64,000 nucleotides of DNA from Escherichia coli (GTDB lineage: Bacteria > Pseudomonadota > Gammaproteobacteria > Enterobacterales > Enterobacteriaceae): assembly GCF_002854065.1 (NCBI RefSeq), contig NZ_CP024147.1. One strand, given 5' to 3'. A program made the position numbers and the translations under genes. Of this stretch, positions 19,936 to 21,063 are shown one piece after another. A model generated the notes under the pieces. The model did not search any database and was not told the origin of the DNA. It saw only the letters and a program-made list of their open reading frames with translations. Positions within the stretch are counted from its first letter, which is position 1, and the number at the start of each line of letters is the position of its first letter.

Positions 19936-21063
19936 TTAGAACTGGTAAACCAGACCCAGAGCTACGATGTTATCAGTGTTGATGCCAGCGTCACGAGTGA
20001 ACTGGTTGTCGTCCAGCAGGTTGATTTTGTAGTCAACATAGGTGGACATGTTTTTGTTGAAGTAGTAGGTCGCGCCAACATCAACATATTTCAGGATATC
20101 TTCGTCGTCGTAGTTACGACCATTGATGACACCCAGGTTTTTACCTTTAGACTGCAGGTAAGCCAGGGACGGACGCAGACCGAAGTCGAACTGGTACTGA
20201 GCAACAGCTTCGAAGTTCTGTGCTTTGTTCGCCCAACCCAGGGAACCTACGCGAGTTGCGTTGTAGGTCTGGGTGTACTGAGCAGCCAGATAGATGTTGT
20301 TAGCGTCGTATTTCAGACCACCAGTGTAGGTTTCAGCACGGTCGCCAGTACCGATCAGACCAGTGTTGTTCTGATCCCAGGTACGTTTGGAGCTGGAGAT
20401 CGCACCACCGATACCAAAGCCTTCGTAATCATAAGTGATAGATCCGCCAACGCCGTCGCCGTTCTGACGCAGAGCTTTACGACCATTGTTGGTGATGCCA
20501 TGACCAGTGAAATCCGGATCATTTTCACCGCTTACGCTGCCATTCTGGCCCTGGTACTGAACAGCAAAGTTCAGGCCATCAACCAGACCGAAGAAGTCAG
20601 TGTTACGGTAGGTCGCGAAGCCGTTACCACGCTGTTGCATGAAGTTGTCAGAACCGTAAGTGTCGCCACCGAATTCTGGCAGTACGTCGGTCCAGGAAGT
20701 TACGTCGTAAACTACGCCGTAGTTACGACCATAGTCGATAGAACCGATGTCCTGGAATTTAAGACCAGCAAATGCCACACGGGTCCAGGAGTTGTTTTCG
20801 CTTTCCGGAGCGTTGCCCTGGATCTGATATTCCCACTGGCCGTAACCGGTCAGCTGGTCAGTAACCTGAGTTTCACCTTTGAAGCCAAGACGCATGTAGG
20901 TCTGGTCGCCATCTACAGACTTGTCGTCAGAGAAATAGTGCAGGCCGTCTACTTTACCGTACAGATCTAATTTGTTGCCGTCTTTGTTGTAAACTTCAGC
21001 AGCGTTTGCTGCGCCTGCTACCAGCAGAGCTGGGACCAGGAGGGACAGTACTTTAACTTTCAT
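19936..21063 (-). CDS. ompC: Outer membrane porin OmpC (375 aa; loop regions differ from the K-12 allele as recalled)
   Basis: Signal peptide [22 protein letters not shown]-terminal ...ALGLVYQF, porin beta-strand pattern. Confidence 0.95.

Follow-up and report, generated by a model that had tools for sequence, protein, structure and literature searches.

The gene at positions 19936 to 21063 (minus strand) of the window, as we call the whole stretch of 64,000 nucleotides of Escherichia coli DNA analysed here, is the correctly placed chromosomal ompC of a non-K-12 E. coli. In the explanation that we consider best overall, with a probability of about 93%, it encodes a functional porin that carries catalogued surface-loop cassettes and that originated by recombination. 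Its product would be a general-diffusion porin, a 16-stranded β-barrel assembling into trimers. Little sets its barrel, its constriction loop L3 or the regulatory region of the gene apart from K-12; loops L1, L2, L4, L5 and L7 present a different, already catalogued cassette combination (b1/a11/e for L4, L5 and L7). Homologous recombination would have joined a 5' tract of about 720 bp from the H299/CFT073 allele family to an O157:H7-type 3' tract, the join lying within an invariant stretch at codons 240–258.

The identity of the gene follows from its reading frame, its family scores and its surroundings. The ORF is intact and ATG-initiated, with 375 codons and a stop, and is annotated as ompC, with the protein WP_000865544.1, in genomes whose DNA is 99.7–100% identical to it. 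Its 375-residue product scored 756.5 bits against the NCBIfam OmpC model NF007841 (cutoff 484), with protein residues 1–375 covering model positions 1–368, and this was the only NCBIfam model to exceed its cutoff, the OmpF model (475.5 bits, cutoff 583) and the PhoE model (450.9 bits, cutoff 599) both scoring below theirs. The gene order, ada-apbE-ompC-micF-rcsD, is the same in K-12 MG1655 and in strain 100416. A cleavable signal peptide (codons 1–21, 21001..21063, minus strand) is present and identical to that of K-12; every solved OmpC chain aligns from residue 22 of the query, giving a mature N-terminus of AEVYNK, and the C terminus has the aromatic end YQF. The mature chain (residues 22–375) aligns end to end with residues 1–354 of 2XE1, the best match among solved structures (345 of 354 residues identical, 97.5%), ahead of the K-12 structure 2J1N, with whose residues 1–346 it also aligns. 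L3, including its PEFGG motif, and the pore-lining strands are kept. OmpC is an enterobacterial osmoporin, a trimeric, cation-selective diffusion porin whose expression is controlled by EnvZ/OmpR and follows osmolarity, and because of this family knowledge and the high identity to a crystallised OmpC, the window protein is most likely an ordinary porin of the same kind. We infer that its pore properties would be like those of K-12 and CFT073 OmpC, and we expect the differences in the loops to affect recognition rather than permeation.

The non-coding surroundings of the gene are also close to those of K-12. The ompC-micF divergent regulatory region (21064..21396), which in K-12 holds the ompC promoter and the OmpR boxes, is identical to K-12 at 332 of 333 positions and includes a GAGGG Shine-Dalgarno sequence of ompC (21072–21076, minus strand). 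It is followed by the micF sRNA gene, divergent from ompC (21397..21490, plus strand; Rfam RF00033, 116.8 bits against a gathering score of 79). Downstream of ompC, a hairpin resembling an intrinsic terminator (19898..19917, minus strand) lies in the apbE-ompC spacer, which matches K-12 at all 111 positions. The spacers adjoining ompC are thus 99.7–100% identical to K-12, or 98.9–100% if micF is counted. A promoter scan returned 3 matches, against 3.2 expected from shuffled sequence. An ORF of 364 amino acids antisense to ompC (19876–20970, plus strand) was considered as a gene and rejected: a comparable stop-free antisense frame of 336 amino acids is found in the K-12 and O157 alleles, one antisense frame across the whole of ompC contains a single stop, and in our reading the ORF reflects the codon usage of ompC.

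Pairwise alignment with K-12 OmpC (MG1655 b2215 from NC_000913.3, 367 amino acids) showed 345 residues to be identical and 22 to be substituted, with a further 8 inserted in the window protein. Using the loop boundaries of the Beck et al. 2016 S1 Fig alignment (PMC5056734), we placed 20 of the 22 substitutions and all eight inserted residues in loops, which account for 34% of the mature sequence (binomial P=4.8e-8), a clustering far beyond chance. Most of the change lies in L4 (20467..20547), with seven substitutions and four additional residues, in L5 (20341..20385), with seven substitutions, and in L7 (20101..20139), with an insertion of GVIN and a G-to-N substitution; smaller differences occur in the L1 segment SDDKSVD (20911..20931; N26D and D28S) and in L2 (20791..20820; S64A, A65P and N67S), all of these segments being read from the minus strand. 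The only non-loop differences, V85I and F88I, fall in strand β6 (codons 106–109, 20737..20748, minus strand), and L3, L6, L8, the signal peptide, the periplasmic turns and every other strand are unchanged. A preliminary description of this gene had held that the framework and termini match OmpC while several loops differ, and that the protein has 375 residues against about 367; alignment with the K-12 sequence bears out both statements. The three peptide segments that it quoted are all present in the translation and correspond to L4, L5 and L7, and it made no mention of the smaller differences in L1, L2 and β6. The identity to K-12 OmpC that it had named as refuting its claim was not found, given the 22 substitutions and eight inserted residues.

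At the DNA level, ompC is 91.8% identical to its K-12 counterpart, compared to 97.2–98.7% for ada, apbE and rcsD. The preliminary description had also ascribed the gene to a non-K-12 lineage, which agrees with flanking genes that are 97–99% identical to K-12 and with the absence of the ato operon. The ompC genes of sampled genomes range in length from 1092 to 1131 bp, so the 367 amino acids of the K-12 protein represent one length class among many.

Next to these comparisons with K-12, the window showed several other departures from that strain. The atoSC-atoDAEB genes are absent at 28305–28578, where in K-12 some 7.3 kb separate rcsC from yfaP; in the window rcsC (25455–28304) is directly followed by yfaP (28579–29355), and likewise in E. 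coli 100416, FDAARGOS_943 and ET350. The yfaL gene (about 41637–45390, minus strand) contains a perfect 28-bp tandem duplication at 44867–44922 that repeats the DNA for AVFRNNIAN and shifts the frame, such that the N-terminal part of about 237 codons runs into a stop and the rest lies in another frame; the K-12 YfaL protein is intact (1250 amino acids), and yfaL is probably a pseudogene in the window strain. Conversely, yfaS (31010–35629, minus strand), annotated as a pseudogene in K-12, is intact here and encodes a protein of 1539 amino acids of the alpha-2-macroglobulin family (Pfam MG2, A2M_BRD, A2M and bMG10). Between inaA and glpQ (50783–53016), the window has an MFS transporter gene (50783–52033, minus strand) and a divergent gene for a LysR-type regulator (52138–53016, plus strand), whereas at this site K-12 retains only a 207-bp yfaH pseudogene remnant. 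Three REP/BIME-like arrays in all occupy convergent or intergenic spacers: 113 bp repeated 2.9 times in the eco-mqo spacer (13029–13355), 114 bp repeated 2.8 times in the rcsB-rcsC spacer (25148–25465) and 87 bp repeated 1.9 times in the nrdA-nrdB spacer (48389–48557). Relative to K-12, the rcsB-rcsC spacer has 114 additional bp, and the genomes compared vary in its length.

To place the loops within the known diversity of OmpC, we typed them manually against the S2 Table of Beck et al., who distinguished 33 L4, 30 L5 and 13 L7 sequences, in many combinations, in a set of 2,707 OmpC proteins of E. coli (PMC5056734). The comparison with an allele collection, which the preliminary description had proposed as a check, yielded exact cassette matches for all three loops: L4 is b1, the UPEC536/CFT073-type sequence of that scheme (PMC5056734), four residues longer than in K-12; L5 is a11, the CFT073 type; and L7 is e, the EC869/O157:H7 type with its GVIN insertion. 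The accession WP_000865544 does not occur in the parts of the Beck et al. supplementary tables that were accessible. 2XE1, identified by Beck et al. as the OmpC of uropathogenic CFT073 (PMC5056734), superposes on K-12 OmpC with an rmsd of 0.44 Å over 340 Cα atoms and differs from it in L2, L4 and L5, with L3 conserved (Lou et al. 2011, PMC3203869).

The OmpC of CFT073 (O6:H1; 2XE1, WP_000865543.1) is like the window protein in length (354 residues in the mature form), in L1, L2 and L3, in the L4 b1 and L5 a11 cassettes and in L6. Nine residues differ from CFT073 to the window, namely F88I in β6, V/A/V to I/G/I in β10 and V to L in β14, VVAG to VING in L7 (allele c to allele e), and A to D and D to N in and just after L8; the two genes differ at 39 DNA positions, mostly in the 3' third and in β10. 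K-12 OmpC (2J1N, b2215) has in common with the window allele the locus, regulatory region, signal peptide, barrel (β6 aside), L3, L6 and L8, and its differences are confined to L1, L2, β6, L4, L5 and L7. The OmpC of the O157:H7/EC869 type (9WCB-like), the receptor of phage PP01, has the same final 355 nt, L6, L7 e with GVIN and L8 as the window allele, but a short L4 of type c2 (eight residues shorter), an a6-type L5 (SPLYIGNGD), a K-12-type L2 and V85/F88. The same length and the same b1/a11/e combination are found in the OmpC of UPEC isolate A35H (Beck et al. 2016), which nevertheless has V85/F88 in β6, V in β14 and a CFT073-type L8 (RAAGINTD-D).

The origin of this combination was examined in a codon alignment of the window allele with six alleles from complete genomes (K-12, CFT073 type, H299 type, O157:H7 and two others), in which the H299-type and O157:H7-type alleles served as putative parents. 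Up to gene nucleotide 741, 73 of 75 informative sites match the H299 type, and from nucleotide 798 all 16 match O157:H7, a split (73:2 to the left and 0:16 to the right of the breakpoint) with a Fisher P of 5.9e-16, or about 5e-14 after correction for 90 candidate breakpoints. Over the 5' tract, gene nucleotides 1–717 encoding L1–L5 (20347..21063, minus strand), which belongs to the H299/CFT073 allele family, the window differs from the H299 type at 7 positions, against 72–101 from O157, K-12 and the two other alleles. Over the 3' tract, nucleotides 774–1128 encoding L6–L8 (19936..20290, minus strand), there is no difference in 355 nt from O157:H7 F1273, compared with 16–18 differences from alleles of the H299, CFT073 and K-12 types. 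Between the tracts lies the zone in which the recombination breakpoint is placed, 56 nt (nucleotides 718–773, 20291..20346, minus strand) without variation among the seven alleles compared. Neither parental likeness reaches the flanks, the sequence upstream of the start codon having 1 difference in 333 nt from K-12 and 9 from the H299 type. As judged from the sequence, therefore, the split informative sites, the tract differences and the flanks unlike the putative parents identify the window ompC as an intragenic recombinant, with L1–L5 derived from one allele family and L6–L8 from another, a mosaic that fits the combinatorial loop shuffling of Beck et al.

One of the two non-loop differences from K-12, at residue 88, also bears on ancestry. 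Phenylalanine occupies this position in every one of the 12 alleles in the Beck et al. alignment and in the PDB sequences of OmpC that we aligned. The possibility that F88I is a private or rare mutation was considered and rejected, since three complete genomes that differ in their flanks encode the same protein with isoleucine here, as do at least 1000 contigs. I88 is present in the H299-type allele and in seven of the 15 cluster members listed, one of them from Escherichia albertii, and the I88 members always combine it with a b-type L4 and an a11-like L5, while CFT073-type members keep phenylalanine. I88 is thus a lineage marker within its allele family.

The allele is already on record and common. 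Its exact 375-residue protein is RefSeq WP_000865544.1 (100% identical; 'MULTISPECIES: porin OmpC [Enterobacteriaceae]'), occurs on at least 1000 contigs in a large protein collection and is annotated at the same locus in the three genomes inspected (E. coli 100416, FDAARGOS_943 and ET350). The label 'divergent' given to it by the preliminary description consequently holds relative to K-12, but not in general. Two complete E. coli genomes, those of 100416 (human stool, The Gambia) and of a wastewater isolate, have ompC DNA 100% identical to the window, and 52 of 5,426 complete genomes (about 1%) have ompC DNA at least 99% identical, from humans, pigs, cattle, an otter, baboons, a frog, a pangolin and water or wastewater. 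In the three inspected genomes that encode WP_000865544.1, the ompC DNA differs by 0–4 nt. Over 13.4 kb, the flanks of the gene in the window share 99.96% identity with strain 100416; FDAARGOS_943 and ET350, compared with window positions 11936–29063, have ompC DNA 99.7–99.9% identical and a flanking 13 kb about 98.6% identical. The presence of the same OmpC in diverged backgrounds suggests either transfer of the allele through recombination or a shared polymorphism of long standing. None of this is novel, since public resources and the literature already contain the allele, its loop cassettes and a crystal structure nearly identical to it; what is added here is the exact allele identity, the loop type, the recombinant structure with its breakpoints, the frequency and a set of receptor predictions.

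According to an idea taken from the literature, diversifying selection from phages, CDI systems and antibodies may maintain loop shuffling in OmpC, and the main competing account of the window allele is that its loop differences are neutral passengers of imported diverged DNA, of no consequence for receptors or antigens. The divergence does come in recombination tracts, and codons with only synonymous differences from K-12 are frequent too, 12 in loops and 17 outside them; synonymous differences cluster in the imported tract as well, and part of the loop divergence may hitch-hike with recombination. Yet the amino acid changes are concentrated in the exposed loops, with a ratio of nonsynonymous to synonymous-only codons of 20:12 in loops and 2:17 elsewhere (Fisher P=3.5e-4), and swaps of these very L4, L5 and L7 cassettes alter susceptibility to CDI and adsorption of PP01 (PMC5056734, PMC12892980), and we consider a purely neutral account unlikely.

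Still less probable is an OmpC adapted to antibiotics by a change in permeation, comparable to the clinical OmpC series in Lou et al. 2011. The thought arises as the nearest structures (2XE1–2XG6) come from a study on multidrug-resistant isolates (PMC3203869), but the closest of them, 2XE1, is the CFT073 allele that served as the reference in the alignment of clinical isolates (PMC3203869), L3 and every strand but β6 are identical to K-12, and the hosts and sources are broad, from human, pig and cattle to otter, baboon, frog and wastewater. A further candidate is a pseudogene, or else a porin that is paralogous or was acquired horizontally (OmpN, NmpC/Lc or OmpK36-like); E. coli genomes have a median of two megablast matches to the query, which shows the existence of paralogs. 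We give this reading next to no credence and set aside a paralog, a foreign porin or a pseudogene because of the synteny, the model scores and the intact ORF: the gene occupies the canonical apbE-ompC-micF-rcsD site between spacers nearly identical to those of K-12, OmpC is the sole model above its cutoff, and the same frame is found intact and identical in other genomes. An ordinary ompC with loop cassettes exchanged by recombination thus remains the reading that we prefer.

For this allele, we infer the functional meaning of the loops from published loop swaps made on other alleles. The contact-dependent growth inhibition effector CdiA-EC536 uses OmpC-OmpF heterotrimers as its receptor, and the CFT073 (b1/a11/c) and A35H (b1/a11/e) alleles of OmpC give resistance to CDI-EC536; recognition was restored by swaps of L5 or L4, and not by swaps of L7 or L8 (PMC5056734). 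The window allele, with b1 and a11, lacks an L4/L5 pairing that CdiA-EC536 recognises, such as b1 with a1 or a c-type L4 with a11. Because its L4 and L5 are identical to those of the resistant b1 and a11 alleles, of which A35H differs from it in β6, β14 and L8, non-recognition is predicted, suggesting that the window allele is not a receptor for CdiA-EC536.

A different outcome is predicted for phage PP01. The gp38 adhesin of PP01 cross-links to L5 and L7 of O157 OmpC; deletion of GVIN abolishes adsorption, its introduction into the OmpC of K-12 suffices for full plating, and the sequence of L5 is non-critical (PMC12892980). Comparison with known phage-receptor determinants, another check put forward in the preliminary description, proved informative in that the GVIN of L7 needed by PP01 is present in the window allele, within a 3' tract nucleotide-identical to that of the O157:H7 allele. 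This suggests that the window allele carries the key L7 determinant for PP01, a prediction drawn from experiments on O157 and K-12 backbones whose L4 is shorter than that of the window. For phage T4, replacement of a phenylalanine in K-12 L4 abolishes adsorption and O157 OmpC is unused, both cited as unpublished data (PMC5221442); the window L4 has a phenylalanine in a context other than that of K-12 L4, and no T4 prediction follows. Colicin E9 translocates via OmpC less well than via OmpF, a difference ascribed to the eyelet and not to the surface loops (PMC8561637). Of the earlier statement that OmpC loops are phage and colicin receptors, the colicin part is therefore loose.

The same segment of L7 is an antibody target. 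The epitope of monoclonal antibody 2G12, reported to be O157-specific, consists of LGVING in L7 and a 13-residue peptide of L6 (PMC8426304), and both peptides are present verbatim in the window OmpC, a non-O157-type allele. LGVING was also seen in the non-O157 alleles of EC93, A54H and A42H and at two further loci (L008 and L009). Because it occurs verbatim in several non-O157 alleles, the LGVING sequence is not specific to O157.

Taken together, the mosaic of b1 and a11 with L7 e and I88 might combine three traits, namely an escape from CdiA-EC536-type toxin delivery that is independent of immunity, sensitivity to gp38 phages like PP01 and cross-reactivity towards antibodies marketed as O157-specific, such as 2G12, a predicted phenotype that would be novel for any allele and that we advance tentatively, at slightly less than even odds. 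Knowledge of porins or of porin evolution is unchanged by the window allele, and the value of b1/a11/e typing is practical and not conceptual: OmpC loop alleles help to set which phages, CDI toxins and antibodies recognise a strain, and their typing is useful for the prediction of phage host range and for diagnostics, where the verbatim occurrence of the 'O157-specific' LGVING epitope in a non-O157-type allele calls for caution. If the predicted combination is true, the L7 e cassette would be a shared, recombining receptor module and no marker of O157.
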